Positions 2,783 through 22,300 of a stretch of 32,000 nt of DNA are shown here, piece after piece. The notes beneath the pieces were generated by a model. It had not been told where the DNA came from. It worked only from the letters and a program-made list of their open reading frames with translations, and did no database searches. Source of the stretch: Planctopirus limnophila DSM 3776 (GTDB taxonomy: Bacteria > Planctomycetota > Planctomycetia > Planctomycetales > Planctomycetaceae); NCBI RefSeq assembly GCF_000092105.1, contig NC_014148.1, positions 810,001-842,000 on the forward strand. Direction: 5' to 3'. The translations under genes and the position numbers were made by a program. Every line of letters starts with the position of its first letter. The stretch's first letter is position 1.

Positions 2783-3090
2783 GGAGTGGCTTTCTCTCAA
2801 CAGTTATACTGTCAGGCAGCGGATGTGTGAGGCATCTTTCTATGCAGCGAGAATTGCCCATGGCAAATTTTCAAGAACAGGGTTTTGCCTGAAGGGGCTG
2901 GCTTTCATTTCATCGCTGTTGCATTTCGAACCGCGCAGGTGTTCAATACTCAACAGATAAACAATTGCTGGTGAATTAAAGTTTGCCAGCTTTGAGTTAG
3001 ATTTCATGAATCCGTGCCTGTCTGTTCTCCAATTTGCCAGCGGCAACACTCCCCACGCTCAACTGATGGACTCTTATTCCGAAAGGGTGC

Positions 3091-7123: not shown

Positions 7124-7933
7124 TCAAACTCCGCCAGCGAGATCTCTTTCTGGTTCTGGCCAATAACTGGCCCACTCGGCTGGGAATGGTGCATGGATCG
7201 TCACTTCATCAAAGCGAATGGGATGAGGGACAATGATCTGACTCGCATGCAAGGCGATCCGCTCGGATCCCCTCGGTTGTGTTGTGAGATTCGTCGTCGA
7301 CTGCTCTTCAACCGTTCGTGTCGTCGTATCTCCAGCCTGTGGCGTTTGGTACTCCTGATCCCCCACGACCGGACAACCCATCGCTGCCATCTGCACACGA
7401 ATCTGATGCATCCGCCCGGTCTGGAGTTCAATCTCCAGCAGGCTGCGACCTGCCACAGTACCGAGAAGACGGTAATCCAGAATGGCAGATTTACTCCCCG
7501 GTGTCCCTTCCGCCACGATCTGGCTATGGGCGGCTTGAGGATCCTTGAGAAGATAATTGGTCAGTCGTCCAGTCGTCTGTGGAGGCATCCCTTCCACCAC
7601 TGCGGTATATGTTTTTTTGACTCGACGATCACGAAAGACCTCGGCCAGCCTGGCCGCGGCTTTGGAATTTCGAGCAAAGAGCATCACACCAGAGACTGGT
7701 CGATCCAGTCGATGGGGGATCCCCAGGTAGACATTCCCTGGCTTGGCATACTTCTCCCGAATCCAGTTTTTGACCCAGTTTTCAAGCGTGGGCAGCCCCT
7801 GGGGAACTCCCTGAGTTAACAGCCCTGCCGGCTTCCAGATGGCAAGAAGAGGACCATCTTCTAAGAGGATTTGAGGTTCGAGGCTCCAGGCAGGCTCGAT
7901 CATCAGGTGTGTCGGCAGAACATTCGGGGACAT
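7124..7933 (-). CDS. RluA-family pseudouridine synthase (no S4 domain)
   Basis: LLAIWKPAGLLTQG and the catalytic motif GIPHRLDRPVSGVMLFARN, then GRMHQIRVQMA. The ATG overlaps the stop of the upstream gene by 1 nt (TGATG). Confidence 0.85.
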   Translation of the reverse strand: MSPNVLPTHLMIEPAWSLEPQILLEDGPLLAIWKPAGLLTQGVPQGLPTLENWVKNWIREKYAKPGNVYLGIPHRLDRPVSGVMLFARNSKAAARLAEVFRDRRVKKTYTAVVEGMPPQTTGRLTNYLLKDPQAAHSQIVAEGTPGSKSAILDYRLLGTVAGRSLLEIELQTGRMHQIRVQMAAMGCPVVGDQEYQTPQAGDTTTRTVEEQSTTNLTTQPRGSERIALHASQIIVPHPIRFDEVTIHAPFPAEWASYWPEPERDLAGGV

Positions 7934-10248
7934 CAGTTTTTAGCCAGCGGTTCAAGTTCAGCAACAGAAAGTGGAGTCTCTCCACGTTGCCACTGGTTGT
8001 AACCAATTTCCTCACGAAAGCGACTGAATCCACCACCAGGGCCGGTGATGGCCGAGAGTATGCCGTACTTTTTCGCTGAAAAGGCGAGTTCGCTCTTCTC
8101 GGAGAGATCCCACTCCTGTGTGTTCAAACCATGGATGGAAGTACCTGGCTTACGGGAATTGAGGAAAGCAATGGTCAGTTTGGAGGGGTCCACTTCGCCA
8201 CCGTTAAAGAATTTACTGAAGCTGGGTGGGTCTTTCACAATGACGACCGGCTTCCCTTTGAATCCCACCCACTTGGAAACATTGTAAACGTTGTTCCGTC
8301 CTGTCCATTGGCGTCCGTTCGGGCTTCCATCAGCTCCCAGGAACGACATGCCCAGCGAATCGCACTTGAAGACATCGTGGAGTGCTTTCACACTGAGTTC
8401 GCCGCTGAATTTCTCTGCGACAAAGCCATCGATCGTATGCACAGCACTTGCATAAATGCCGATCGACAGCTCTTTTTGACCAGAGATTTCAAATCCTTTC
8501 GTGGCGAAAATCACGCTGTTATCGATTGTTACCTTCTGGTTATCTGCGACATCGAGTTGCATGGCTGTCGCACTGGTGGCCAGCAACGAATTTTTAACGA
8601 CGATGACAGCGCTTCCTTTGGAACTGATCGCCACCACTCCGCGTTTGGTTCCTTCAGAGAGGGCGCAGTTAAGTAATCGCAACTGCCCGCCATTCACCTG
8701 CAGAATTTTCCATGGAATCGAAGACGATCCCGACGGTGGATCCATCTGCAATCGGAGTCCTTCCAGCGTGACGACACCACTGTCGATCGTGAACAGGGCA
8801 CGGGCAATCTCATCTTTCTCAGGTCGATATCTCAGGCCAGTGCTGTCATATCCCACACCATACTCAAGCACGGGTGTGTAGCCGAAGCCTGCTGTGATCG
8901 TGACATCCTGCTTGAACAGATCGTTCTGGCAGCGATAGGGGCCATTCCCATCAATACGAATGACTTCCCCAGGCTTGGCAGCGGCCACTGCTTCCTGCAG
9001 GGAAGAAAAGCGTGGTAAGCCTTCGCGTCCCGGCAGACAAAAGGCTTGTTCAGGCTCCCCTTCCAGCAATCGCGAAATATCGCTGCCCAGATTGGCCTTC
9101 CTCAAGAACAAAACCGCAAAGGCGGTATCAGCCGGGCTTTCTTTGGAATCTGGCCACGAACCATCTGGCTTCTGAGCCTTCAAGAGAGCTGTGGCCCCTT
9201 GATCGAACCACTTCACGTCTCCGAGGCGTTCCAATCCCAGGAGCACACCCAGACGCTCAATGGACCACATGAAATAGCGGGCCGATCCGGGGCTCATCCC
9301 TTTGGCGTAGTAGCCAACTTGAGTGAATCCTTTGGCATAGACAGGATCTTGCAGTAACGTGGCTTTTTCGGCGCCTTTCGCGGTTGATGAATTGCGGGTG
9401 GCTGCATTCTTCTGAAGTTCTTCGCGAATCTTGGTGGCTCGTGCAACTGTCAGGCAGAACAAACCTGCTGATGTCATCGCACCTGTGCTATCCGTTTTCG
9501 TGCCCTTGGGGTTGTAAGGCCAGCCACCGTCTTCATTTTGCGAATCGACAAATCGTGCAGCGACCAGTTGCATCGCTTCATCGATCGGTACGCCGTACCG
9601 CGAACAGACCCACAACCCCAGCACACCAAACTGAGTACAGCTGTTATCTCCCATGCCAGCTTTTCGCTTCGGGGCACGGGCCGTGGACGAAAGCGAAGTC
9701 GCATCGACCGTCGGACAGGTATATGTCCACCCGCCGCTTTCCAACTGGCCAGCGAGTAATCGGGCGCCAATCGTACGAATCAAAGCCTTGTCGGCACGAT
9801 CACCAACGCGTGCCAGGAGCAGTGCCGCCAGCGTGAGGTCGTACGTCTGTTTCAGCTCGCCATCAATCCCCCGTCGAACACTTTTGTAGCCTTTATCAAC
9901 GACCGGGTCATACAACGGCACACCATTCTCAATGAGCGCGAGGGTACACAAAGCGGTAATCCCAACCTGGTGCCCTTCATACACCCAGCTTCCATCGGCC
10001 TCCTGCTTCGACTTCAGATATTCCAGCCCTTTGAGTCGCCCGGCTTCAATGGCCGCAGGATCGGCCGCAAAAGTGACGGACGAATGCGCCAAACTCTGTA
10101 CGAAGGCAGCCAGCCCGATACCCACAATCCACAGGCGTAAAGATCGGCTCATTTGCCACTCCCTTTGCTCAAGCAAACGCATCAATAAGTTTTGATAATT
10201 TATTGAGTGTACAGCGAGCACCGGAGCAAGCAATGGGAGTTCAGCCAA
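7933..10248 (-). CDS. Secreted protein: prenyltransferase/terpene-cyclase-like alpha-toroid repeats plus right-handed beta-helix-like C-terminal half
   Basis: Signal peptide MSRSLRLWIVGIGLAAFVQSLAHS (likely true start ATG 10152). Repeats DGSWVYEG, GGWTY, DGGWPYNP, DGSWPDS are typical of prenyltransferase/squalene-oxidase repeats. FSSLQEAVAAAKPGEVIRIDGNGPY followed by short repetitive beta-like segments suggests a parallel beta-helix. Confidence 0.6.
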   Translation of the reverse strand: MAELPLLAPVLAVHSINYQNLLMRLLEQREWQMSRSLRLWIVGIGLAAFVQSLAHSSVTFAADPAAIEAGRLKGLEYLKSKQEADGSWVYEGHQVGITALCTLALIENGVPLYDPVVDKGYKSVRRGIDGELKQTYDLTLAALLLARVGDRADKALIRTIGARLLAGQLESGGWTYTCPTVDATSLSSTARAPKRKAGMGDNSCTQFGVLGLWVCSRYGVPIDEAMQLVAARFVDSQNEDGGWPYNPKGTKTDSTGAMTSAGLFCLTVARATKIREELQKNAATRNSSTAKGAEKATLLQDPVYAKGFTQVGYYAKGMSPGSARYFMWSIERLGVLLGLERLGDVKWFDQGATALLKAQKPDGSWPDSKESPADTAFAVLFLRKANLGSDISRLLEGEPEQAFCLPGREGLPRFSSLQEAVAAAKPGEVIRIDGNGPYRCQNDLFKQDVTITAGFGYTPVLEYGVGYDSTGLRYRPEKDEIARALFTIDSGVVTLEGLRLQMDPPSGSSSIPWKILQVNGGQLRLLNCALSEGTKRGVVAISSKGSAVIVVKNSLLATSATAMQLDVADNQKVTIDNSVIFATKGFEISGQKELSIGIYASAVHTIDGFVAEKFSGELSVKALHDVFKCDSLGMSFLGADGSPNGRQWTGRNNVYNVSKWVGFKGKPVVIVKDPPSFSKFFNGGEVDPSKLTIAFLNSRKPGTSIHGLNTQEWDLSEKSELAFSAKKYGILSAITGPGGGFSRFREEIGYNQWQRGETPLSVAELEPLAKN

Positions 10249-10260
10249 AGCCCGGCAATT

Positions 10261-10851
10261 TCACGCAGCTCGACGACCTGCTGGTTCGTCGGCCTGACGC
10301 ACTCCTTCTCGCCTTAACACCTTGATGGAAGTCATCCACAGAATCTGCAGATCAAACCACAAAGATTGCCGACGAGCGTACTCGGCATCTAAAGCGACTT
10401 TCTCGGGAATCGATAACTCATCGCGACCGTTGATCTGTGCCCAGCCCGTGAGGCCTGGCCGCAATAGATGGACGCGCTCCGCTGTCCGTGCTGCCACGAG
10501 GTCATCCTGATTGAACAGTGCCGGACGCGGGCCGACAAAACTCATATCACCCCGCAGAATCGACCACAGTTGCGGCAGTTCATCGAGACTCGTCTTGCGG
10601 AGAAAATGACCCACTGGCGTGATCCACGAACGTGAGTCAGTGAGTAAATGAGTCGCGACCACCGGCGTATCGATCCGCATCGAGCGAAACTTCGGCATCG
10701 GGAAAATTTCGTTGTTCTGGCCGACTCGGTTCGACCAGTAAAGTGCCGGCCCACGCGATGTCAGTCGCACCACGCAGGCAATCGCCATCATGAGCGGCAG
10801 CAGCACCATTCCTGCTGATAAGGCCAGCACAACGTCAAATGCACGCTTCAC
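10261..10851 (-). CDS. Small bacterial sugar transferase (PglC/WbaP-C-like initiating phosphoglycosyl transferase)
   Basis: 196 aa with a GTG start and a re-entrant N-terminal helix. Motifs [29 protein letters not shown] and [22 protein letters not shown]. The C-terminus is ...GRRAA. Confidence 0.85.
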
Positions 10852-10894
10852 CTGAAAACCTCAATCTCGCACACGATCCTCATGGCCAACGGCT

Positions 10895-11935
10895 CTAAGC
10901 CGCCCGTTGACAATGTCTCGCCGATTCAAGAGTTTCGATCAAGTTCAGTTCGCCAGCCGCATCTCGCCAGCCATCCACCAGGGAAACTGCCGGAGCCATC
11001 CCCAGCTCCCGCCAAAGTGCCGACCCATCCACCGCCACATCTTCACACATTTTGTCCACCAGCCACCTGCCGACGGGTGCCTTCCGCCGAACGGCATGAA
11101 ACATGGCCTCGACCACACCCAACCCACTCCGCGTCATGTTTCTGGGGATACGCAGTATTCTCGCACGTCCACCTGTTGCTTCGCGGATTGAAGCCAGGAT
11201 CTCATTGAGTGAGTAAATCGTCGAGTCGCAAACATTCCAGATACGTTGTGTCGATGGATCGGCTTTCAACTCGGCAGCGATCAACCGCGAAAGATCAGCC
11301 GCATGGATCAACGTGCGGCGGTTCGATCCGTCGCCAATGCATGGCAGCACTCCATATCGTCCCAGCTTTAAAAGGGTTCGATAGTTCCCCTTGAGCCCCC
11401 GTCCCAAAACAGCGGCCAACCGCCAGATGGTGACATTCGGAAAGGTTAAGCCCACTTCCTCAGCTGCCAGCTTGCTTTCTGAGTACCAGTCGATTGGACA
11501 AGGAGCCGTCGATTCATTCACCACGCCCTGCTGAAAGGCCGAGCCATAAACATTGATGGTGCTGGCTAAAATCACACGTTTGACGCCGCATTCGCTGGCC
11601 GCCTCACAGACATGGCGGGAGCCAGCGACGTTCACTTGCCAATACTTCTGCTTAATGTCGCTCCCGGGATTATTGATATGTAGAAGTGCCGCCAGATGAA
11701 TGACGGCAGCAGCACCGCTCATCGCCGTGGCCAGCGCACGCGTGTCGTCAAGATCGGCGACGACGGATTCATCAGCGATATCGAGTCCTACTGCCGAACG
11801 CCCCACGGCCCGCACATGAAAACCCGCCACTCGCAACCCCAGACAAACCTGCCGCCCCACCGCACCGGTTGCCCCAGTAACAGCGACGGTTTGCGGTATC
11901 ACCTCACAGTGATTTTGATGAGTAGCAAACTCCAT
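10895..11935 (-). CDS. NAD-dependent epimerase/dehydratase family protein (SDR)
   Basis: Rossmann motif VAVTGATGAVGRQV and catalytic YSESK (YxxxK). The C-terminus is ...CQRAA. The ATG shares 1 nt with the upstream stop (TAATG). Confidence 0.8.
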   Translation of the reverse strand: MEFATHQNHCEVIPQTVAVTGATGAVGRQVCLGLRVAGFHVRAVGRSAVGLDIADESVVADLDDTRALATAMSGAAAVIHLAALLHINNPGSDIKQKYWQVNVAGSRHVCEAASECGVKRVILASTINVYGSAFQQGVVNESTAPCPIDWYSESKLAAEEVGLTFPNVTIWRLAAVLGRGLKGNYRTLLKLGRYGVLPCIGDGSNRRTLIHAADLSRLIAAELKADPSTQRIWNVCDSTIYSLNEILASIREATGGRARILRIPRNMTRSGLGVVEAMFHAVRRKAPVGRWLVDKMCEDVAVDGSALWRELGMAPAVSLVDGWRDAAGELNLIETLESARHCQRAA

Positions 11936-13119
11936 TATGCCGCTTTCCGACGTGTGATCGAATCGTCACTGACGGGTACGAGCCTTTGATAGAGTCGAAT
12001 CGTCTGCTCTGCGATCAATGTCGAAGTAAATTCCTCTTCTACTAAACGACGTCCACCTTGTCCGAAGGTTTGGCGTATCTCAGGATGCGATAGTGCAAAA
12101 TGTATCGCTTCTGCTAAAGCTGTACTCTCTTTAATGGGTATCAACCAGCCATTGAGCCCAGGGCGGCAAATTTCCCGGCAGCCTCGGATATCTGTCGTGA
12201 TAATGGCCCTGCCGCAAGCCGCAGCTTCGAGGAGGACTTTTGGTAGTCCCTCTCCATAGAAGCTGGGGAGGCACACAAGTTGCGCCTGGCTGAAAACAGT
12301 TTGCATATCTGACTGGTGTTCCCACCATTCAATGACGCCATCTCGTTGCCATGCCCGCAACTGCGATTCCGATACATGATCAGGATTGTCTGTATCTGTC
12401 CGCCCCACCAGCACAAAGCGACTTTCACAACCCTTAGATCTTAGTAACTGAGCAGCATCCACAAATTGCTGCACGCCTTTAGACCACAGCATGCGGCAGG
12501 CCATGACAACAATCGATGGCTGTGCCGGTTCAGGCACCGGGTGAAATGACTCGATATCAACGCCCGCGCCTCGGATCAAACAGATTTCCTCTTGTCGAAC
12601 GATCCCGGAATCGACCAACTCACGCTCGTCATCACTATTCTGAACGATGACTGGTGACCGAAGACCCAAAAAACAACCTCTAAGGATCGTCCGGATGGCG
12701 GTACGGCCCAACGCAGCCTTCCATCCTTTAGCGGCGAAGACATAACCCAGTCCTGCAAACGCATTGACGATCTGCGGCACTCCCGCCAAACGAGCTGCCA
12801 ATGTACCCAGCAACACATTTTTTAATGCGACGTTATGCACAAGATCGGGTTGAAGCTCTCGCAGAATTTTCGCCAACCGGGTAACGACACGCAGATTGCT
12901 GAAAGGGTCAATCGAACGTCTCGGGCATGCAAACGAGATCACACGAATCCCTTCGGATTCGATTTTCTCTTGATAAGTGCTGGTACGTGTGACTAGAGAA
13001 ACGCGGTAGCCCGCCGCCATGGCGGCCCTGGCCAGATGCAGGCGGTGCGACCAGAAATACCAGTCTTCACTGATCAGATAAACCAGATGTGGCTGCGTCA
13101 CGTCAGGCGGCCCGTTCAT
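11935..13119 (-). CDS. Glycosyltransferase family 4 (GT-B)
   Basis: N-terminus LVYLISEDWYFWSHRLHLARAA and C-terminal EGLPKVLLEAAACGRAIITTDIRGCRE (EX7E-type motif). The C-terminus is ...RRKAA. Confidence 0.8.
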   Translation of the reverse strand: MNGPPDVTQPHLVYLISEDWYFWSHRLHLARAAMAAGYRVSLVTRTSTYQEKIESEGIRVISFACPRRSIDPFSNLRVVTRLAKILRELQPDLVHNVALKNVLLGTLAARLAGVPQIVNAFAGLGYVFAAKGWKAALGRTAIRTILRGCFLGLRSPVIVQNSDDERELVDSGIVRQEEICLIRGAGVDIESFHPVPEPAQPSIVVMACRMLWSKGVQQFVDAAQLLRSKGCESRFVLVGRTDTDNPDHVSESQLRAWQRDGVIEWWEHQSDMQTVFSQAQLVCLPSFYGEGLPKVLLEAAACGRAIITTDIRGCREICRPGLNGWLIPIKESTALAEAIHFALSHPEIRQTFGQGGRRLVEEEFTSTLIAEQTIRLYQRLVPVSDDSITRRKAA

Positions 13120-13828
13120 GGAGGGAAGAGTTGGCCGACTTGGTGGCCGTCAACAGAAACCCTGTCGTTGCCGATGGGGTTCGATGCCCCCGCTGCAAAC
13201 TCCCCGGCAACCGTGCCAGCAGGTGATTGGCCAGCCGCAAAGGGGCAAACAACCACCCGGGCGAAGCTGTCGAACAAAGATCGGAAACGACATGCAGGCG
13301 ATGTCCGTGAGAAATAATCTCCACGTTGTCAAACTCTTTAAAGAGCGATTCGAGGCAATGCCGGGTGGGTCGCCAGAAGTCGTAAGGGTCGCCATGCTGA
13401 TGAAACATGAACGGGACAGAAAGCACCACACGACCGCCCGGCTTGAGCACGCGCGTAATCTGCGAACAGAGTGTGAATGGATCCGCAATGTGTTCCATAC
13501 ATTCGGTGGCCACGACGCAGTCAAAGCGTCCGTCTTCAAAGGGCATACTGAGGACATCGGCCACCACGTCAGTCACGCCGGGTACTTCTTCGATATCGAG
13601 GCAGACATACTCCTGGGCGCCCTGGAACAGATGCCGGTAAGGATCATGCCCCGCCCCGCAGATCAGGACCGATTTGCAGGCTGAAAGATCCAGCTGCCGC
13701 AACGACTTCTCCAGCAGCAACCGCCGCGAAGTCGGCAACATCTGACGCACCCAGTGCCGGGGATTGAGGAGAGAATGACGTATATTCATTATATAAAACC
13801 TTAGTATCAATCCATGAGAAATACTCAT
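13103..13828 (-). CDS. Class I SAM-dependent methyltransferase
   Basis: VLICGAGHDPY (motif I-like) and LSMPFEDGRFDCVVATECMEHIADP. Alternative start ATG 13789. It overlaps the next gene by 17 nt. The C-terminus is ...HERAA. Confidence 0.75.
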   Translation of the reverse strand: MSISHGLILRFYIMNIRHSLLNPRHWVRQMLPTSRRLLLEKSLRQLDLSACKSVLICGAGHDPYRHLFQGAQEYVCLDIEEVPGVTDVVADVLSMPFEDGRFDCVVATECMEHIADPFTLCSQITRVLKPGGRVVLSVPFMFHQHGDPYDFWRPTRHCLESLFKEFDNVEIISHGHRLHVVSDLCSTASPGWLFAPLRLANHLLARLPGSLQRGHRTPSATTGFLLTATKSANSSLHERAA

Positions 13829-14988
13829 TGCATTTTAGAGTTCACATTCGTTATCACTTCGCGCCAGGAATCAATATGCTGCATGGTTGTTGCCTCGATG
13901 CCGAACTCATGCACAATTCGCTCGCGACATGATTCGCCCAATTCCAGTCGGGAAGCCTCACTTTTAGATGCAAACTCAAGCATCGCTTCGTGAAGTTTAT
14001 CAACACTGTGTTTTGGTACCACGACCCCACAGTCGCCTACGACAAAGCTGGAACCTCCTGTATCGCTGACAATACAGGGAACTCCACACGCCATCGCCTC
14101 GCCGATACTGTTGGGAAATCCTTCGTCAACATTCGACATGAGGACTCCGACATCAAGACTCATCTGAATCGACTTCACATCGCTGCGAGGTTGTAAGAAG
14201 TGAAAGTGCGAACGGTGTTCACAATCTTTAAGGATCTCCTGAAACACAGGATCATCCCCAGAAATGCCATGGCCGAACAGGACAAACTTGGCATTTGAAA
14301 CCTGAGCACAAGTCAGAACGGCTGCCCGAAGGAATGTCTCGTGATCTTTTGACTTATGCCGCCTGGCAACCATTCCAAACAGAATCTCATCTTTCGCAAC
14401 CTGCAATTCTTCACGCACCTGTTTTCGAACCAGAGGATCCGAACGGAACAGATCAGAATCGAAGCCATTAGGAATCATCCTGAGTTTATCTTTAGGATAT
14501 TTCAGCCGTTCATGAGTTAAGAGGACAGAAGGTGAATTTCCAATGATGAGCGATGGAATCCACCGCGAAATAGAGGCACAAAGAAACCGAAAGAAACGTG
14601 CCGTTCTCCCTGCGATGTCGTCGCCAGCGGCGGTACGGAGATTCCAGACAACGGGCACCTTTCTTGCGACACATTTGGTCAGTAGGCCGCCAAAAAAATC
14701 AGATTGATAAAGCCATGTCACAACCACGTCGGGTTGAATCACTTTCAGCAATCTGAGCAATTTTATACAAGCAATCGGCACCGTAAGTGAATAATCCATC
14801 CGGATGCAATCTACTTCGCAGCCCAAGCTACGGAATTCCTCTCCTAAATTGCCTCGTGATGTCAGCGAAACAACAAATGAACAAATACCTTTTGTGGAAG
14901 AATAACGCACAATTTTCTGAAGAGCTCTTTGTGCCCCTCCGAGTTCAAAACTGTTGATGATATGAAGTACTTTCATCAAATTTTTCAA
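13825..14988 (-). CDS. Glycosyltransferase family 4 (GT-B)
   Basis: MKVLHIINSFELGGAQ (likely true start ATG 14976; the ORF-track start is TTG) and EGFPNSIGEAMACGVPCIVSDTGG. Its stop overlaps the next ATG (ATGA). This is the only protein in the cluster without an AA terminus (...NSKMQ). Confidence 0.8.
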   Translation of the reverse strand: MKNLMKVLHIINSFELGGAQRALQKIVRYSSTKGICSFVVSLTSRGNLGEEFRSLGCEVDCIRMDYSLTVPIACIKLLRLLKVIQPDVVVTWLYQSDFFGGLLTKCVARKVPVVWNLRTAAGDDIAGRTARFFRFLCASISRWIPSLIIGNSPSVLLTHERLKYPKDKLRMIPNGFDSDLFRSDPLVRKQVREELQVAKDEILFGMVARRHKSKDHETFLRAAVLTCAQVSNAKFVLFGHGISGDDPVFQEILKDCEHRSHFHFLQPRSDVKSIQMSLDVGVLMSNVDEGFPNSIGEAMACGVPCIVSDTGGSSFVVGDCGVVVPKHSVDKLHEAMLEFASKSEASRLELGESCRERIVHEFGIEATTMQHIDSWREVITNVNSKMQ

Positions 14989-15035
14989 CTAGCAGGAAGA
15001 CAAAACGACCAGAAAGGGGCGAGAAAATCACAATA

Positions 15036-16394
15036 TCAAGCAGCGGTTCGCCGTCTGCTTACAACTAAAGGGTCACGATATGCGCGTATGTCCTTCGCCA
15101 GATACATTCCATGAGACTTACATGAAATGAAACCTAACAGAAGTAGAACGCCCCGTAAGTCAAGCACATTGTGAGAAAAAAAACCATATAAAATCACCGT
15201 GCATATCATGCATATAGCCATCATGTCACGCCGATGAATCGCCCGCAAAAGAATTGTAGCAAACAAGGTAGCAAGCAGGATTAGGGCCGGAAGACCATTA
15301 TCAAGGAACTGAGCAATATAAATATTATGTGGGCCTTGATCGTGAATCAGAGAATAAGAAAAACGTGTTCCCCAGCCCAGAACAGGTTCTTTCCATGCAA
15401 GATCCAAGAAATATTTTGCAAGATGGGCGCGATAATCATCTTTATTGAAGACAACGTCAAAGTCCCCATTAAGAATTGCTGTTGCCCTCGCTGAACCACT
15501 TCCTTGGCTTGTGTTTTCAACAACCATGCCTATGACTATGGGCGCAGTGATGGCCATTAATGACGCAGTGATTAGGCCAATGAGAATTGTACCCCAGCCC
15601 TTCCTGCAAACGACTGATAAAAATAGAACGCATACGCATGCGAGAACGCATAAGCCGCTTCGTGAGTATGTGGCAAAAACGCAGCCGAGTGAAAGGCAAA
15701 TTGAGCAGAATGACATCAAGTCAATGATTCCGTTTCTCCAATCCAGAGACAAAATGCATAAAAAGCAGATACAGAATGCTCCGTCATTCGAGTTCATGGC
15801 GAAACCGGCGCTTCTGCTGGGTACTGTTGAGAATGTCCCCGGATTGATCAGGTCGATTGCGATGCTGATCGAATATGCACAAAGCCACAGGAAGGAAACA
15901 GATCTCCAGACCGTGTAGGAATTATGTCCATTAACGCTAAGCGCAATTCCAATAAACAACCCGAAAACAAAGCATATGCCATCAAAAAGGGGAAGTACGA
16001 GATAATGCTCTTCGGTTCCCTTTGCAACGCCGAACATGACACTGCAAAAAGCACCCCATCCACTAAGCAGGAGCATAATGCCAAGTGGAGCGCCGACAGT
16101 GCTCAATTGCTGAAAAAGGTACGGTAACCGCACAGTTCTACTGCTAAAAGCAGTAAACAGGCATCCTGCCGCGATAAGCATGATCCATGGATTTGGTGCA
16201 TCGAATCTCACGGAGAGCAGATCATCAGCTTTTGCAACAAAGAAGCAAAGAAAAACGCCTCCAAGGACCGGCAAAAACCACTTTGTTTTAGCAGTGCGAA
16301 TGTGTGTGGAAGAGCTATACAGGTTCTGAGTCCTGTATCGATTGACGGCGATCACTGAGCTGTTTGCTAGCACGTTCGCTTGCCTTTTGTTCAT
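15036..16394 (-). CDS. O-antigen ligase/polymerase-like (Wzy_C family) polytopic membrane protein
   Basis: 452 aa with about 10 or more hydrophobic helices and a central loop ...ATYSRSGLCVLA... It sits between the Wzx-like and GT genes in an AT-rich segment. The C-terminus is ...RRRTAA. Confidence 0.65.
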   Translation of the reverse strand: MNKRQANVLANSSVIAVNRYRTQNLYSSSTHIRTAKTKWFLPVLGGVFLCFFVAKADDLLSVRFDAPNPWIMLIAAGCLFTAFSSRTVRLPYLFQQLSTVGAPLGIMLLLSGWGAFCSVMFGVAKGTEEHYLVLPLFDGICFVFGLFIGIALSVNGHNSYTVWRSVSFLWLCAYSISIAIDLINPGTFSTVPSRSAGFAMNSNDGAFCICFLCILSLDWRNGIIDLMSFCSICLSLGCVFATYSRSGLCVLACVCVLFLSVVCRKGWGTILIGLITASLMAITAPIVIGMVVENTSQGSGSARATAILNGDFDVVFNKDDYRAHLAKYFLDLAWKEPVLGWGTRFSYSLIHDQGPHNIYIAQFLDNGLPALILLATLFATILLRAIHRRDMMAICMICTVILYGFFSHNVLDLRGVLLLLGFISCKSHGMYLAKDIRAYRDPLVVSRRRTAA

Positions 16395-16414
16395 CGAGCG
16401 AAGATGTCCTGGGG

Positions 16415-17806
16415 TTAGGCCGCCTTACCTGTAAGTGACGATCGATCGTCGTTGTGTTTGATCTTGTCTGCTGTTGGCCCCACGAGAGCGAAGGAAAATG
16501 GATCCACATTTAGATCAAGGTGGGTGAAGATCATTTTTCGGGAGTATAATGCATAAAAAACAGTGATTGCCGAAACACTGACAGCCATTCCAGATGATCC
16601 CAGCAAACTACCGGAGATGAAGTTCGATATGATGGTTGCTAAGCCGAAGATGAAGGTTATTCTGAGTAATACTCCCTCTTTTCCGCTCATTGCGAACAAA
16701 ATGTTTCCAGTTCCGATGGATGCTACAAGTACCCATCCGAATGAGATTATCGAGGTTAGTAGGACCATTCTTGCATCGAATCGAGGTTCTGTTGAAGTAA
16801 TCAGGAGTGACGTGCTGACAGCTACAATGGCAGCAAAGATGGTGATAAGTAAGTTGATTCGTGCTGCTTTTGTAACTAATGATTGCTGCGGTTGGTGAAC
16901 TCCAGTCTCGTAAAGTCCGGTGAATTTGGCTGCTACTATGCTATCGATGATTGGAACGCCAAAAATGCATATCCCAGCAATTTTGGCAGCGAGACTGTAA
17001 TATGCGACTTCCTCAGCGGTGGCTACCATGCCAAGGATGATGACGTCTGACTGTCTTAGTGCTAATTGTGCAAGGCCTGTGATCAGTAATGGCCAACTGG
17101 CTTTCCACCATTCATTTTTATTCTCATTCACTAGATGAGCAATGTGGTGTGATTTCTCTTTTCGTGTATTTGCGCATCCAATGGTAAGCAGTGCCAATGA
17201 CGAGAGTGATCCTAGCAGGTAGCTTGCAAACGCTTCCGATATTGTTGAGCTGTTGTTGCCGCTGATGACAAATAAGGATAGCAGTGCGATTAGCGGCCTT
17301 ACGCAGTTTAAACCAAATGTTGAGAGTAAAACTTCGGCCTTGCCTCTTAGTTCTGCAAACAGAACGTTTATGCAAGTGTTTACTGGTATGAGGAGAGCCG
17401 TGAATGCGATTTCAAGGGTGTACTTTCCTTCGAATTGTAGGTTCCAGAGTCCTCCAAGTGTTAAAGTTAGAATGGAAAGGATTATCGACGCAAATAGTAT
17501 ACGGCGATACCCCCAGCTTATCAGGGCTGCAGAGGTGGCGTTACTTTTTGTTGAATCATATTTGGCTATAAACCTTGTCATTGTGAAGTCAATACCAAGG
17601 GCAGCGAGCCGAGCCATTATTAGAGACCACGCTAAGCAGATTACAAATACACCATATTCGTTTGGGCTCAGTTTGATTGCGAATAGGCCAAACATGGCTA
17701 ATTGAAGCGTGTAGCCCAAGCAGTGATTTAGGAATGCAATGAGGGATTCTGGTTTTACTTGGAGGAGTTGCCTGACAGAATTCAATGGCATGAGTCGTCC
17801 ATCCAC
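16415..17806 (-). CDS. Wzx-like oligosaccharide flippase (polysaccharide biosynthesis protein, MOP superfamily)
   Basis: 463 aa with about 12 or more hydrophobic helices. Its size and position are typical of Wzx. GTG start at 17806, alternative ATG 17791. The C-terminus is ...TGKAA. Confidence 0.65.
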   Translation of the reverse strand: MDGRLMPLNSVRQLLQVKPESLIAFLNHCLGYTLQLAMFGLFAIKLSPNEYGVFVICLAWSLIMARLAALGIDFTMTRFIAKYDSTKSNATSAALISWGYRRILFASIILSILTLTLGGLWNLQFEGKYTLEIAFTALLIPVNTCINVLFAELRGKAEVLLSTFGLNCVRPLIALLSLFVISGNNSSTISEAFASYLLGSLSSLALLTIGCANTRKEKSHHIAHLVNENKNEWWKASWPLLITGLAQLALRQSDVIILGMVATAEEVAYYSLAAKIAGICIFGVPIIDSIVAAKFTGLYETGVHQPQQSLVTKAARINLLITIFAAIVAVSTSLLITSTEPRFDARMVLLTSIISFGWVLVASIGTGNILFAMSGKEGVLLRITFIFGLATIISNFISGSLLGSSGMAVSVSAITVFYALYSRKMIFTHLDLNVDPFSFALVGPTADKIKHNDDRSSLTGKAA

Positions 17807-17864: not shown

Positions 17865-19139
17865 TCATCGGCTTAAATTGTGGAACTTCAGATGTTCATC
17901 ATCACGAGGAACGCACTCACCACTCACGCGTAGTGTGCCGCCGGTGGGGAGGGTGCCTAGCCATTGGTGGCAGAGGGGGGCGCAGTGTAGGCCGGGGCGG
18001 GCTTCCATGCCGTATTCCTGTTCAAAAATGACTGCTAAATCGTGCGGCGAGAATCCTTCCGCCGTCACGCTCAAAATGTTCACGCTGGAACTCTCTGGCA
18101 AAATTAGCCGAATTCCCGGAAATGTGGAAAGAGCAATTTGCCAGCCTAAGCGTGAAAATTGCTCGCGCTCTTGAATTTCCTTCAATGATTGCCCGGCTAA
18201 CCAATCCAGGGCGGCGGAAAGTCCGGCGATGCCGGGAAGATTCTGATTGCCGGCCTCGAACCTGGCGGGCCCGGCGGTGGGTGGGGCGAGATCTTCGCTG
18301 GCGAGGCCTGTGCCGCCCAATCGCCAGGGGGAAATTTCTTCATCGAGGCCCGCTCGAATGTAAAGCAGGCCGGTTCCCAGAGGGCCCTTCAAGCCTTTGT
18401 GCCCCGCCATGGCAAGGATATCCACAGGCTGGGAGGACATATCCAGCGGGAGAATCCCGGCGGTTTGCGCGGCATCCACAAGATAGATAACGCCCGCTTC
18501 CCGGCAGATTGTGCCCAGGTCGTCGATGGGCTGAATGACGCCGGTGACGTTGCTGGCGTGGGTGGTGATGACGAGCCGGGTATGGGGCCTGAGTGCAGCG
18601 CGGAGATCGGCAGGTTCAATCCAGCCTTGCTGGTTAGGAGTGAGCAGGGTCTGGGTGATGCCGAGGGTTTGTTGGAGCCAGGCGAGGGGGCGGAGGACGG
18701 AATTGTGCTCGAGCAGAGTGGTGACGACGTGGTCGCCGGGCTTGAGCAAGCCGCGAATGGCGAGATTGAGACTATCGGTGCAGTTGAGGGTGAAGACGAA
18801 GCGATCGGGAGGGGCATTGAAGAACCGACCGACTTTGAGGCGGCACTGATCGATAATCGATTGGGCTTCGAGAGCAGAGCGGTAGGCGCCTCGGCCGGCG
18901 GGAGCTCCGCATTCGGTGAGGTACTTGAGCATGGCTTCGGCGACACCGGGGGCTTTGGGGAAGCTGGTGGCGGCGTTGTCGCAGTAAAGTCGGGGCATGG
19001 AGGAGTTTGGTGTTTGTTGGTTGATAGTTGATGGTTTGTGAAAGGCTTGTTTGAGGAATGGCTGAGGTTTGTTTGCCTGGGCATGCTTGCCCAGGGCTGC
19101 AAGCATGGCACGAGGTATTGATCCAATGCCGAACATCAA
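17865..19139 (-). CDS. Class V PLP-dependent aminotransferase fold enzyme (cysteine desulfurase / SufS-CsdA-like)
   Basis: LYCDNAATSFPK, PLP-lysine context LAMAGHKGLKGPLGTG and RPGLHCAPL. The probable true start is ATG 18998 (MPRLYCDNAATS). The ORF-track start at 19139 would place a palindromic element and a G-poor leader inside the CDS. Confidence 0.8.
   Translation of the reverse strand: MMFGIGSIPRAMLAALGKHAQANKPQPFLKQAFHKPSTINQQTPNSSMPRLYCDNAATSFPKAPGVAEAMLKYLTECGAPAGRGAYRSALEAQSIIDQCRLKVGRFFNAPPDRFVFTLNCTDSLNLAIRGLLKPGDHVVTTLLEHNSVLRPLAWLQQTLGITQTLLTPNQQGWIEPADLRAALRPHTRLVITTHASNVTGVIQPIDDLGTICREAGVIYLVDAAQTAGILPLDMSSQPVDILAMAGHKGLKGPLGTGLLYIRAGLDEEISPWRLGGTGLASEDLAPPTAGPARFEAGNQNLPGIAGLSAALDWLAGQSLKEIQEREQFSRLGWQIALSTFPGIRLILPESSSVNILSVTAEGFSPHDLAVIFEQEYGMEARPGLHCAPLCHQWLGTLPTGGTLRVSGECVPRDDEHLKFHNLSR
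19076..19111. repeat. Palindromic REP-like element, copy A
   Basis: cctgggcatgcttgcccagggctgcaagcatggcac. It is 29/36 identical to copy B at 28627-28662 (28/31 in the core). It contains two mutually exclusive hairpins. Confidence 0.6.
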
Positions 19140-19331: not shown

Positions 19332-22300
19332 TTAGTCGATTTCGACGCCCAGCAGCTCTTCTTCTTCTTCCTGGATCACGATTCGAGGTGTCACCATGAG
19401 CATGAGACTCTCGGTTTCGCGACCCACACCGGAGTTCTTGAACAACCGGCTGACGTAAGGAATCTTGTTGAGGATGGGGACACCGGCCATGTTCCGTCCT
19501 TCGCGGAGTCGCTTCACGCCACCCAAGAGGACGGTACCACCATCGGGCACACTCACTGTGGTGAGCACAGTGACCTGCTCGACCACGGGGAGCTGAACGA
19601 CCTGGGCAGGCTGCTGAACCTGACCGTTCTGGTTGTTGCCGTTCTGGTTGTTACCGTTCTGGTTGACCTGGCCCATGGTGACACGGCTGGCCTGGTTGGC
19701 AATCGGGGCAGAGCCACCGAAGCCACCGATACCACCGAATCCAAACTGCTGCTGTTGCTGATTACCACCGGCCTGAACACCGCCAAAGGCCTGACCACCA
19801 CCAGCACCGCCTGCCTGGGCCTGGTTACCGGTGACACCACTGGCTGTCGAGAAGGTCTGAACATCGGTGATGCTGGTGAAGTTGGGGATGATGGTCAGGC
19901 GGACGTAGCGGCGGTCGGCAGAGATCACGGCGGTAACCGTCAAGCTCACACCTTCGGGGAACTGCTGAATCTGTGGCGTCTGGATAGCAGCACCGACACC
20001 GACTGTCGTGTTGTAACCAGTGACGAAGAAGCGGTTCACCGTATCGGAGACGGTGGCTGTCTGGCCGTTGAACAAGGTCAACTTGGGGGCAAACAGCAGG
20101 TTGCTGCGGCTATCGCCTTGAGCGGCCTGGATGAAGAAGAACGCTTCGAGGTCACTCAGGATGGCCAGACCGGTGGTAATACCGGCGGTGGGGTCAAATC
20201 CACCAAAGTCAGGCACACCGATATCGAACGATCCTTGACGGAAGGGGATATCCAGATCGGGTGTGAAGCTGTTCTGGCTGCCCAGACCAACAATTGTGCC
20301 ACCCTTCTGATAGCTGCTTCGCTGAGTCGTATTTCTCGTTGGTTGTGTTCCAAAGAGCCCGGCTCCCGCTTGACCAGCGGTGCCAGCGGTGCCAGCGGTA
20401 CCAGCGGTGCCGGCAGTCCCCGTAGTGCCTGTCGTGCCCGCAGTATTCGCTGATGAAGTTCCTTGTGTGGGCAACTGCACGGCACCGAATGGTGGCAATG
20501 GCAAGCCCTGGTTGTCGGTTTCCGGACCACCGACTGTCGAGTTGACGTTGAAGTCAAAATCGACACCGATGCGTTCGAAGAAGCTGTCGCTCACTGTCAC
20601 GAAGCGGACTTCGACTGTCACCTGAAGATCCTGCAACCGACGGAGCTGCTTGAGCAGATCGGTGATTTCTTCATGGACGGCCTGGGTCTGGCGGATGACG
20701 AGCGAGAGAGTGGTTTCAAATCTCTGAATCGATGCCGGTCCACCGACCTGTTCCCAACTATCGGGAGCGATGGTGCGGGTGATCAGTTCGATCAGTGTGT
20801 CGTAATCGGTGCTTTGAGTGGGCTGCTGAGGAGCACGTGGATTGCTACCGACCTGATTCAGGCCACCAGCGACGTTTGGTGCCACCTGAGCCATCGACTG
20901 GCCACCCATGCCGCCCATCCCGGCGGGGACAGACATCATGCTGCCGGCTGCCTGGTTGAGGCTGCCATTGCGAGGATCGACATTGTTCATGCCGACACCG
21001 ACACCTGTGGCGAAGTTGGGAATAGGGACCACGAGGTCGGCGACCGGGTAGGTTACGGCAATCATCTGCCCCTGCTGACGCAGACGGCTGGTGATTTTGA
21101 GGACGTCGTCCTGGATCATGTAAGCGAGGTTAAAGCGTTCGAGAATCAGGTTCAGCACGCTCTTCAGAGGAATGCCATCAACATCGATGCTGACGAGAGC
21201 GTCGGTCGTGGCTCCTTCTTCTTCCACACCACGAGGATCGATCACAATGTTGATATCCGTCATGGCGGAGATCTTCTTGATGACTTCACCCAGGGGGACG
21301 TTGTCTTCGTGCAGGGAGACAGCCCGGTTCAGGCTTTCCTGGATCTTGAGTTCGGCATCGGTTCGCTTGCGGTTATCGGTCCCGAATTTCGAACGACGAG
21401 CTGACAGATCCTTCCAGTTTTCTGGATAGGCCACTGGGTTTTCATCGCCCACGTTCACGAGCATGGCCTGCTCGACATCGTTGAACATCTTCCAGTGAGA
21501 TTCGTCTTTACGATCTTTGAGCTGAGCGTTGATCTCGTTGCGGCGAGCATAGCGAGACTTGTAGATCAAAGTTTCGGAAGTAGGTTCACTGGGGTTGAGT
21601 TCTTTAGCCTTCTTGGCAACGACTTCGGCTTCGGCGAATCGCTTCTGCTTGAAGAGTTCGTTGAATTCTTCGACCAGCTTGGCATATTCCTGCTCGATGC
21701 GGATCTTGGTTTCGGTCGAACCCTTGATGCGAGCGAGCACTTCTTCGTTGTGACGCTTCTGATCAAGGTTTGGCTTACGCTGCTCAATTTCGTTGGTGAG
21801 CGAAACGCGAGTCTTGCCCAGAGAAGACTGTAGTTGAGCCATCGATTCTGGAGAAAGCTCGGAGCTTTCGATGGTGGCCAACTGGCGATCAATCATCTGG
21901 AGGGCAGTTTCGGGATCTTTTTCGCGAAGCTGCTCAGCCTTGAAGATGGTGCTCAAAGTTTCTGTGCGTAGACGATCAAACTGGAGCGACTTGGCCTTGG
22001 CGGCGTCATCAATCACGCCACCTTCGGTCAAAGCTGGGCCACTTTCGGTCTGATGGTTCACCATCTGAACATCTCGGCCACCCTTAGGTGCGAGTTCCCG
22101 CATGTAATCCCGCAATCGCTGAGCGCGGAAGCGATCGAGCTTCTGGCCAGATTCGTAAGCCTGGCTGAAAGCCTGGTAGGCTGCTTCGCGATTGCCGCGA
22201 TTGAGTTCGAACATGCCACGGTTATAGAGATCGATTGCAGAAAGTCCCTGAGCAGCAGCAATCGGGGCTGGTGCCTGAGGATCATCTTCCCAGGGGGAAG

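Follow-up and report, generated by a model that had tools for sequence, protein, structure and literature searches.

A genome-encoded C-terminal Ala-Ala tail on the proteins of polysaccharide clusters in Planctopirus limnophila and other Planctomycetaceae, a candidate ssrA-like degron

Organization of the polysaccharide locus

A block of seven consecutive genes for a polysaccharide pathway, six of which encode proteins with the same short C-terminal tail, was analysed in the genome of Planctopirus limnophila DSM 3776. The block lies on the minus strand at 10261-17806 of a stretch of 32,000 nucleotides (nt) of contig NC_014148.1 (positions 810,001 to 842,000 of the forward strand), which is referred to here as the window and is numbered from its first letter. 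Six of the seven genes end in [R/K/T]-Ala-Ala-stop. The C-termini were taken from the translations of the open reading frames and from the DNA read at each gene end, and families were assigned by Pfam; for the seven block proteins NCBIfam gave no assignment more specific than Pfam.

At the low-coordinate end of the block, in which all genes are on the minus strand, a small phosphoglycosyl transferase (PGT; Bac_transf, 196 amino acids (aa)) is encoded at 10261-10851 and ends in ...EPAGRRAA (last codons GCT GCG TGA); its stop codon occupies 10261-10263 and its added extension of 10 residues is encoded at 10264-10293. The NAD-dependent epimerase/dehydratase at 10895-11935 (Epimerase family, 346 aa) ends in ...ARHCQRAA (GCG GCT TAG), with its tail codons at 10898-10909, and is followed at 11935-13119 by the glycosyltransferase GT4a (GT4 family, 394 aa), which ends in ...SITRRKAA (GCG GCA TAA) and has a flexible tail, residues 381-394, encoded at 11938-11979. 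The S-adenosylmethionine-dependent methyltransferase at 13103-13828 (Methyltransf_11, 241 aa) ends in ...SSLHERAA (GCC GCC TGA) by way of an 11-residue extension, SANSSLHERAA, encoded at 13106-13138. A second GT4 glycosyltransferase, GT4b (387 aa, 13825-14988), ends in ...NSKMQ and is the sole member of the block without the tail. The two remaining genes encode a Wzy-type polymerase (Wzy_C, 452 aa, 15036-16394) that ends in ...VVSRRRTAA (GCT GCT TGA; tail codons at 15039-15050) and a Wzx-type flippase (Polysacc_synt, 463 aa, 16415-17806) that ends in ...SSLTGKAA (GCG GCC TAA; tail codons at 16418-16429), with a hydrophilic stretch of about 40 residues between its last hydrophobic segment and its C-terminus. 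An initial annotation of the window, made from the sequence alone, had listed these six Ala-Ala ends, and every C-terminus and codon triplet in its list was reproduced.

GT4b, Wzy and Wzx are held in an AT-rich sub-block at 14000-17500, which has 44-47 % GC compared with about 55 % in its flanks and is typical for exchangeable serotype-specific genes; the tail is present there on Wzy and Wzx and missing from GT4b. Neighbouring genes of the block overlap by 1 nt at 11935 (TAATG), by 17 nt at 13103-13119 and by 4 nt at 13825-13828, which suggests translational coupling, and the other junctions are 20-47 nt apart. Because the junctions include both overlaps and gaps, the tail is independent of junction type.

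Occurrence and sequence of the tail

In ten independent polysaccharide loci of the Planctomycetaceae type, 43 of 82 pathway genes end in Ala-Ala, as against 1 of 34 neighbouring genes (Fisher p = 1.2e-7). Homologous clusters of other phyla served as a control (78 loci from Nitrospirota, Burkholderiales, Desulfobacterota and others), and 16 of their 1030 reading frames end in Ala-Ala (1.55 %), with a maximum of one per locus; the difference from 43 of 82 has p = 3e-41. Only 2 of 148 family-wide representatives have this ending. These two control sets rule out a general trait of homologous polysaccharide clusters. A phylum-wide habit of planctomycetes is ruled out as well, by plasmids of the Isosphaerales (Singulisphaera, Isosphaera), in which 2 of 50 proteins end in Ala-Ala, and by the exosortase-linked exopolysaccharide (EPS) cluster of Isosphaera, where glycosyltransferases, kinase and epimerase all lack the tail. 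Distant BY-kinases that end in EDHAA or SSSAA were also considered as instances of the same habit and were set aside, as the one locus of this kind that was fetched (L103, 74 % GC) has the ending on 1 of 8 proteins and shows no cluster-wide tails. A protein search of plasmids gave a hit in Spirosoma and nothing else. The tail is thus restricted to the Planctomycetaceae lineage and, within it, to proteins of the pathway.

An origin of the pattern in composition or chance would mean that Ala-rich C-termini are simply frequent in these fairly GC-rich genomes, and it could appeal to the frequency of Ala and to the isolated Ala-Ala termini that make up 1.4-4 % of the control sets. This explanation has next to no probability and is refuted by the controls. 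No control locus had more than one such terminus, even at 74 % GC, the ending is nearly missing from the 34 neighbours in the ten loci, and in the window all 14 complete genes called beyond the block lack it, as the initial annotation had stated. The probability of at least six Ala-Ala ends among seven proteins is 1e-10 at the measured background of 1.55 %, which upholds the earlier view that chance is negligible, and it is 4e-9 at a background of 1/34 and 1e-7 at 5 %.

The consensus [R/K]-[R/K]-Ala-Ala-COOH is carried by most cytoplasmic and inner-membrane proteins of Wzx/Wzy-type clusters in the Planctomycetaceae, namely glycosyltransferases, PGT and WecA initiators, epimerases, methyltransferases, AsnB-like amidotransferases, Wzx, Wzy and BY-kinases, and relaxed forms, R-x-[V/S]-Ala, also occur. 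A motif logo was made from 37 tails that were selected for the Ala-Ala ending, so that Ala at positions -1 and -2 is given by the criterion. At position -3 there are 22 Arg, 6 Lys and 1 Leu (76 % Arg/Lys) and at position -4 there are 21 Arg and 1 Lys (59 % Arg/Lys); upstream of -4 no preference is seen beyond polar, Pro and Ala residues. The Ala codons of these tails are GCC (24), GCG (17), GCA (17) and GCT (16), roughly as inside the genes (38, 27, 17 and 17 %, in the same order), and the stop codons are TGA (23), TAG (8) and TAA (6). Since all four Ala codons and all three stops are used at the tail, selection acts on the peptide. A repeated DNA element or terminator at the gene ends is ruled out, given that codons, stops and intergenic context all vary.

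The enrichment of Arg and Lys at -3 and -4, the fact that many carriers act at the membrane, and the tight packing of the window genes with their short overlaps could each be accommodated by a passive role without a specific reader, such as binding to anionic lipids, protection from exopeptidases, or an effect on translation termination or coupling. Such a role is improbable. The invariant part of the tail is Ala-Ala and not the charges, and lipid binding needs neither two Ala residues nor a free carboxylate. The variation of stops, Ala codons and intergenic distances around the tails speaks against a role in translation, as do the presence of tails on genes that are last in an operon and on lone genes of the opposite strand, and their absence from co-transcribed neighbours.

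Conservation in related organisms

The nearest relatives of the locus were found in Planctopirus hydrillae (GT4a 93 % identical), P. ephydatiae (PGT 97 %) and a metagenome-assembled genome (MAG) named 'Planctomyces sp.' (PGT 83 %); the exact PGT protein was seen only in three Logan read-archive assemblies. The syntenic locus of P. hydrillae keeps all six tails and also the GT4b exception, the orthologue of which ends in ...NAKSQ and likewise has no tail. Both GT4 paralogues called in another locus, L006, end in RRAA, unlike GT4b of the window. The Wzy of P. hydrillae ends in ...NRHRIAA where that of the window ends in SRRRTAA, so that Ala-Ala is kept, the neighbouring residues have changed and one Ala codon differs synonymously; its Wzx tail is kept with a synonymous change of an Ala codon from GCC to GCG. 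Synonymous changes in tail Ala codons among the Planctopirus relatives are of the types GCT/GCC, GCT/GCA and GCC/GCG. In the Planctomyces sp. MAG (L097) the epimerase orthologue ends in ...RPASRAA instead of HCQRAA, with RAA kept and the three preceding residues different. Purifying selection is limited to the last two to four residues. Two proposals of the initial annotation, that the signal lies in the protein and is not a DNA repeat, and that orthologues would keep the tails while the preceding residues drift, agree with these changes and with the free use of Ala and stop codons.

At greater distance, Ala-Ala ends 17 of the best 120 homologues of GT4a and 9 of the 10 at the top of that list, or 8 of the 9 closest ones outside Planctopirus. 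Apart from the P. hydrillae orthologue, these top homologues are about 50 % identical, and their linkers are unrelated to one another. The loci around the GT4a homologues differ in gene content and share the tail habit. In L005, tails occur on a BY-kinase (GRAA), two methyltransferases (RRAA and TKAA), GT4a (KRAA), an epimerase (SRAA), a WecA-type protein (RRAA), Wzx (IAA) and two hypothetical proteins (GLAA and RRAA). The carriers in L006 are the two GT4 proteins mentioned above, AsnB-like amidotransferases (RSAA and PKAA), GT4a (SRAA), an epimerase (RKAA) and a PGT (RTAA); those in L088 are three GT4 proteins, Wzx, an epimerase, a PGT and one hypothetical protein. GT4a, PGT and BY-kinase each end in RRAA in L090, and L092 has tails on a hypothetical protein, two GT4 proteins, an amidotransferase and GT4a.

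The BY-kinase of L005 was used as a second, independent search seed. Ala-Ala ends 16 of its 23 closest homologues (38-51 % identity), and six of the remaining seven end in RRVA, QRVA, RKSA or RRSA. One of these close homologues is from the cultured Maioricimonas rarisocia, which like Planctopirus belongs to the Planctomycetaceae and whose locus (L100) has a WecA-type protein ending in RRAA, WecB in RVAA, WecC in RRAA, the BY-kinase in RKSA, an amidotransferase in RLVA and a UDP-glucose dehydrogenase in IRKA. Three tails were found in L101 and one in L102. The tail therefore persists at protein identities of about 50 % and in clusters of differing architecture. A metagenome scan with the methyltransferase alignment returned a single true relative, a metagenomic contig with 49 % GC (L093), in which the same core order of methyltransferase, GT4a and PGT at 9045-11450 has zero tails.

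Several proteins without a Pfam family that lie inside or adjoin the clusters end in RQAA, GLAA, RRAA or RSAA (L088 10361-10909; L005 8610-9044 and 16016-17371; L092 1957-4128; L101 7417-8424). The tail may flag such proteins as unrecognised members of the pathway.

Structure and origin of the tail

Beyond the usual C-terminus of each family, the tail adds a flexible stretch of 10-14 residues. Among the 120 nearest homologues of the PGT, 114 end in ...GV[x]H and almost all of these are 186-188 aa long; they are from Hydrogenophaga and others, are mostly 70-77 % identical, and have the same ending as all PGTs of the control loci. The planctomycete PGTs extend 10-13 residues further and end in RRAA, RKAA or HRAA (one example is HQGPLVGPTTRRRAA). 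In a neighbour-joining tree of the PGT core, every extension-bearing PGT falls in one clade, and because this single clade holds all carriers, the extension was gained once, after which the end was kept and the linker diverged. Two members of the clade keep the extension and end in ...SRQQ and ...QRKVA (L092 11765-12337; P0184), and these are natural loss or variant cases of Ala-Ala. The idea that the PGT was recently transferred from Hydrogenophaga-like bacteria (74-77 % identity) and then acquired its tail is contradicted by the one-clade tree.

Orthologues of the methyltransferase in L006 and L092 (60-61 % identity) stop at ...VAAIK or ...VAAQK and have no extension, so tails have also been gained or lost individually. 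In an AlphaFold2 model of GT4a (mean pLDDT 89) the predicted fold ends at the helix 366-380, and over the last 14 residues (381-394) the pLDDT is 59 falling to 46. With the PGT and methyltransferase comparisons, this model bears out the suggestion in the initial annotation that the tails sit on flexible, added extensions. The BY-kinases have a Tyr cluster, then an acidic linker of about 10-25 residues and then the tail; the Tyr-rich cluster is that of autophosphorylation, and phosphorylation so close to the tail might in principle influence its reading.

Flanking genes

The tail-bearing block is embedded in a longer run of genes on the same strand, in which the co-directional neighbours have no tail. 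The upstream boundary is a class-V aminotransferase gene at 17865-19139 (minus strand), 58 nt from Wzx, the product of which ends in ...NLSR. It is preceded by a giant secretin gene (1593 aa; 19332-24113, minus strand), which has a C-terminal Secretin domain and weak TPR hits; this placement of the secretin, upstream of the cluster and on the same strand, is kept in P. hydrillae. At the downstream boundary a prenyltransferase/SQHop-like repeat protein is encoded at 7933-10248 (minus strand), which ends in ...PLAKN and begins with a hydrophobic segment resembling a signal peptide; SQHop-like repeat proteins of 739-771 aa lie directly downstream of the PGT in the window and in Planctopirus relatives (L004, L097). 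The next gene is that of a pseudouridine synthase (7124-7933, minus strand). All four proteins lack the tail, as do the ThuA/DUF1080, MarR, pirin, DoxX and GAPDH proteins outside the block. As same-strand neighbours on both sides have no tail, the tail tracks function and not strand or operon.

A large HSP70-like gene (1-2821, minus strand), 70 % identical over about 930 aa to an HSP70/DUF3731 protein of L097, runs past the left edge of the window, and its C-terminus lies outside and was not counted. The seemingly gene-poor first 3 kb of the window is coding, since this gene runs off the edge there and for that reason is missing from the list of open reading frames. A search of the window and of the fetched loci for a tmRNA gene gave no hit, and Rfam found nothing in the window.

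Proteins without the tail and membrane topology

The tail was never found on Wza-type exporters, large Wzy_C-TPR fusions, MBOAT proteins or RmlA/B/D-like nucleotide-sugar enzymes, and some methyltransferases and glycosyltransferases also lack it. In five loci a Wzy_C-TPR fusion of about 900 aa is paired with a BY-kinase (L005 1672-6991; L090 13758-18935; L100 10001-15160; L101 10001-14927; L102 174-5217). Of the 10 independent planctomycete-type loci, 6 contain the fusion; it is absent from every other locus fetched and from the window. By manual reading it has 13 hydrophobic segments with alternate loops rich in Arg and Lys (positive-inside), which places its C-terminal TPR domain in the periplasm and would account for its lack of a tail. 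Cytoplasmic C-termini were assigned to Wzx, PglC-type PGT, WecA and BY-kinase from knowledge of their families, and soluble enzymes qualify trivially. The tail-less proteins with clear topology are all consistent with a reader in the cytoplasm.

Possible function of the tail

The reading favoured here, to which roughly an even chance is given, is that ClpXP or FtsH recognises the tail as an ssrA-like C-terminal degron, which would keep the pathway short-lived. The Ala-Ala-COOH end would be the part inserted into the pore of the protease, a cytoplasmic AAA+ enzyme that would be either ClpXP or, for membrane-associated members, FtsH. Every component of the pathway would as a result have an inherently short life, with levels that track transcription closely, and the machinery could be cleared jointly once synthesis stops. 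The combination of an invariant end with a drifting linker, the selection at the protein level, the conservation among distant homologues and differing clusters, the single origin in one family, the enrichment in the pathway, the flexible extension and the absence of the tail from proteins that a cytoplasmic reader could not reach (Wza-type exporters and Wzy_C-TPR fusions) all argue for this reading.

Ala-Ala-COOH had been named in the initial annotation as the key ssrA determinant for ClpX, and the literature backs this (PMC7652416, PMC10862746). Native proteins that end in Ala-Ala are ClpXP substrates (PMC7652416). When C-terminal pentapeptides were screened without bias in E. coli, 91 % of the top 100 degrons had Ala-Ala, and the screen also showed a preference for Arg at -4, tolerance of net positive charge and recognition of LVA endings by ClpX (PMC10862746). 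Tagging with ssrA also leads to degradation by FtsH, ClpAP and Lon (PMC9753991). ClpX is favoured as the reader because it is the best-documented bacterial reader of two small residues with a free carboxylate.

Single proteins that carry a native Ala-Ala degron are well known, CtrA of Caulobacter being one that is degraded by ClpXP. A second, basic class of ClpX signal, the MuA type or C-motif 2 (...RRKKAI), was reportedly defined by Flynn et al. in 2003, and Arg/Lys at -3 and -4 of the tail may tune affinity as in signals of that type, or may alternatively reflect a preference of the planctomycete enzyme. The tails share with the MuA signal a cluster of Arg/Lys within the last six or so residues, directly before a small non-polar end, and the closest to it are the variants RRVA, RKSA and RLVA found in BY-kinases and in Maioricimonas. 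They differ from it in ending nearly always in Ala-Ala, which would make them a hybrid of two ClpX classes if, as is presumed here, ClpX reads them.

Several points weigh against a degron. The optimum of E. coli ClpX has Leu at -3, with Arg favoured only at -4, and 39 % of the pentapeptides that end in Ala-Ala are only weak degrons in that organism (PMC10862746); 28 of the 37 tails have Arg or Lys at -3 in place of the preferred Leu. ClpXP and FtsH are universal, so the reader alone does not account for the restriction to one lineage, and the cell would pay a high price for degrading about ten enzymes per cluster constitutively. The location of the C-termini of the membrane carriers comes from family knowledge and manual reading, and a hydropathy predictor was inconsistent for Wzx and Wzy.

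Some of these features would be easier to understand if the tail were a docking or address signal, a C-terminal peptide ligand for a dedicated cytoplasmic receptor with a carboxylate-clamp TPR, PDZ-like or other domain, which would bring the enzymes together in a single membrane-bound complex or direct them to a place such as a pole or budding site. This alternative is the main rival and a serious one, though less probable than the degron. It suits a single short motif on many unrelated folds, held on a flexible tether and conserved only at the extreme C-terminus; a lineage-specific reader would explain the lineage restriction more naturally than a universal protease, and the basic residues at -3 and -4 depart from the E. 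coli ClpX optimum (PMC10862746). The invariant residues are, on the other side, identical to those of the best-known degron, and no candidate receptor was found among the cluster genes. The sole conserved repeat-domain protein is the Wzy_C-TPR fusion, and it is disfavoured as the reader of the tail because of the apparently periplasmic position of its TPR domain and its absence from the window. A more specific and still more tentative proposal is a pathway-wide zip code resembling the peroxisomal signal PTS1, in which a receptor specific to the Planctomycetaceae would read [R/K][R/K]-Ala-Ala-COOH and gather all cytoplasm-facing Wzx/Wzy components at a single place on the membrane, for instance a pole, bud neck or holdfast site, and perhaps hand them to a protease afterwards.

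Comparison with known systems

The tail shares with the ssrA/C-motif 1 signals, as found in ClpXP substrates of E. coli and in RqcH alanine tails, a free Ala-Ala-COOH on an unstructured segment. It differs in being genome-encoded and present on about half of the pathway proteins instead of on single regulators or failed translation products, in having Arg/Lys instead of Leu or hydrophobic residues at -3 and -4, and in its confinement to one bacterial family; degradation, established for those signals, is presumed here. In E. coli, FtsH turns over the lipopolysaccharide enzymes LpxC and WaaA by way of a non-polar C-terminal tail and with the TPR adaptor LapB, and there too the abundance of an envelope-glycan enzyme is set by a C-terminal tail and a membrane AAA+ protease. 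That system concerns one or two enzymes of committed steps with longer and differing tails, whereas in the Planctomycetaceae a uniform four-residue end is placed on initiators, glycosyltransferases, modifying enzymes, flippase, polymerase and kinase.

Among targeting signals, PTS1 (SKL-COOH, read by the TPR protein PEX5) and EEVD-COOH (read by the TPR proteins Hop and CHIP) likewise combine a short invariant end with a variable linker on many unrelated enzymes that share a destination or process; here, unlike there, no receptor was found, and the TPR protein of the clusters appears to be periplasmic. The PEP-CTERM/exosortase system resembles the tail as a lineage-variable C-terminal signal that co-occurs with exopolysaccharide clusters. 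Its signal, borne by secreted proteins that have signal peptides, is a Pro-Glu-Pro motif followed by a transmembrane helix and then a basic cluster. The tails, in contrast, are hydrophilic, have neither PEP motif nor helix, and are on cytoplasmic enzymes. Hits of the window proteins to the NCBIfam PEP-CTERM-associated glycosyltransferase families were far below the cut-offs.

Conclusions

Full-text literature searches found no description of this motif or of its marking a whole pathway, and a uniform encoded tail on most pathway components across one family is, to our knowledge, new. Should the tails be degrons, we know of no earlier case of a whole envelope-polysaccharide pathway that carries one genome-encoded ssrA-like signal. 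If an address or docking signal is the true reading, the tail would be a new bacterial protein-sorting code, a zip code would introduce a new principle by which bacteria organise a biosynthetic pathway, and the existence of a dedicated receptor would make the finding categorically new.

Under either reading the motif is a marker of pathway membership that requires sequence only and that includes several hypothetical proteins, and it is a compact natural tag that may prove useful in the genetics of planctomycetes. As Planctopirus limnophila is genetically tractable, the hypothesis can be tested directly. If the tails are degrons, the signal would span the pathway from the initiating transferase to flippase, polymerase and kinase, and the entire machine would be short-lived by design. 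A role in cell-cycle or holdfast timing, as suggested in the initial annotation, is compatible with the life style of the budding, dimorphic Planctomycetaceae, and degrons on the whole pathway would offer a handle on the remodelling of the cell surface between their swimming and attached stages.

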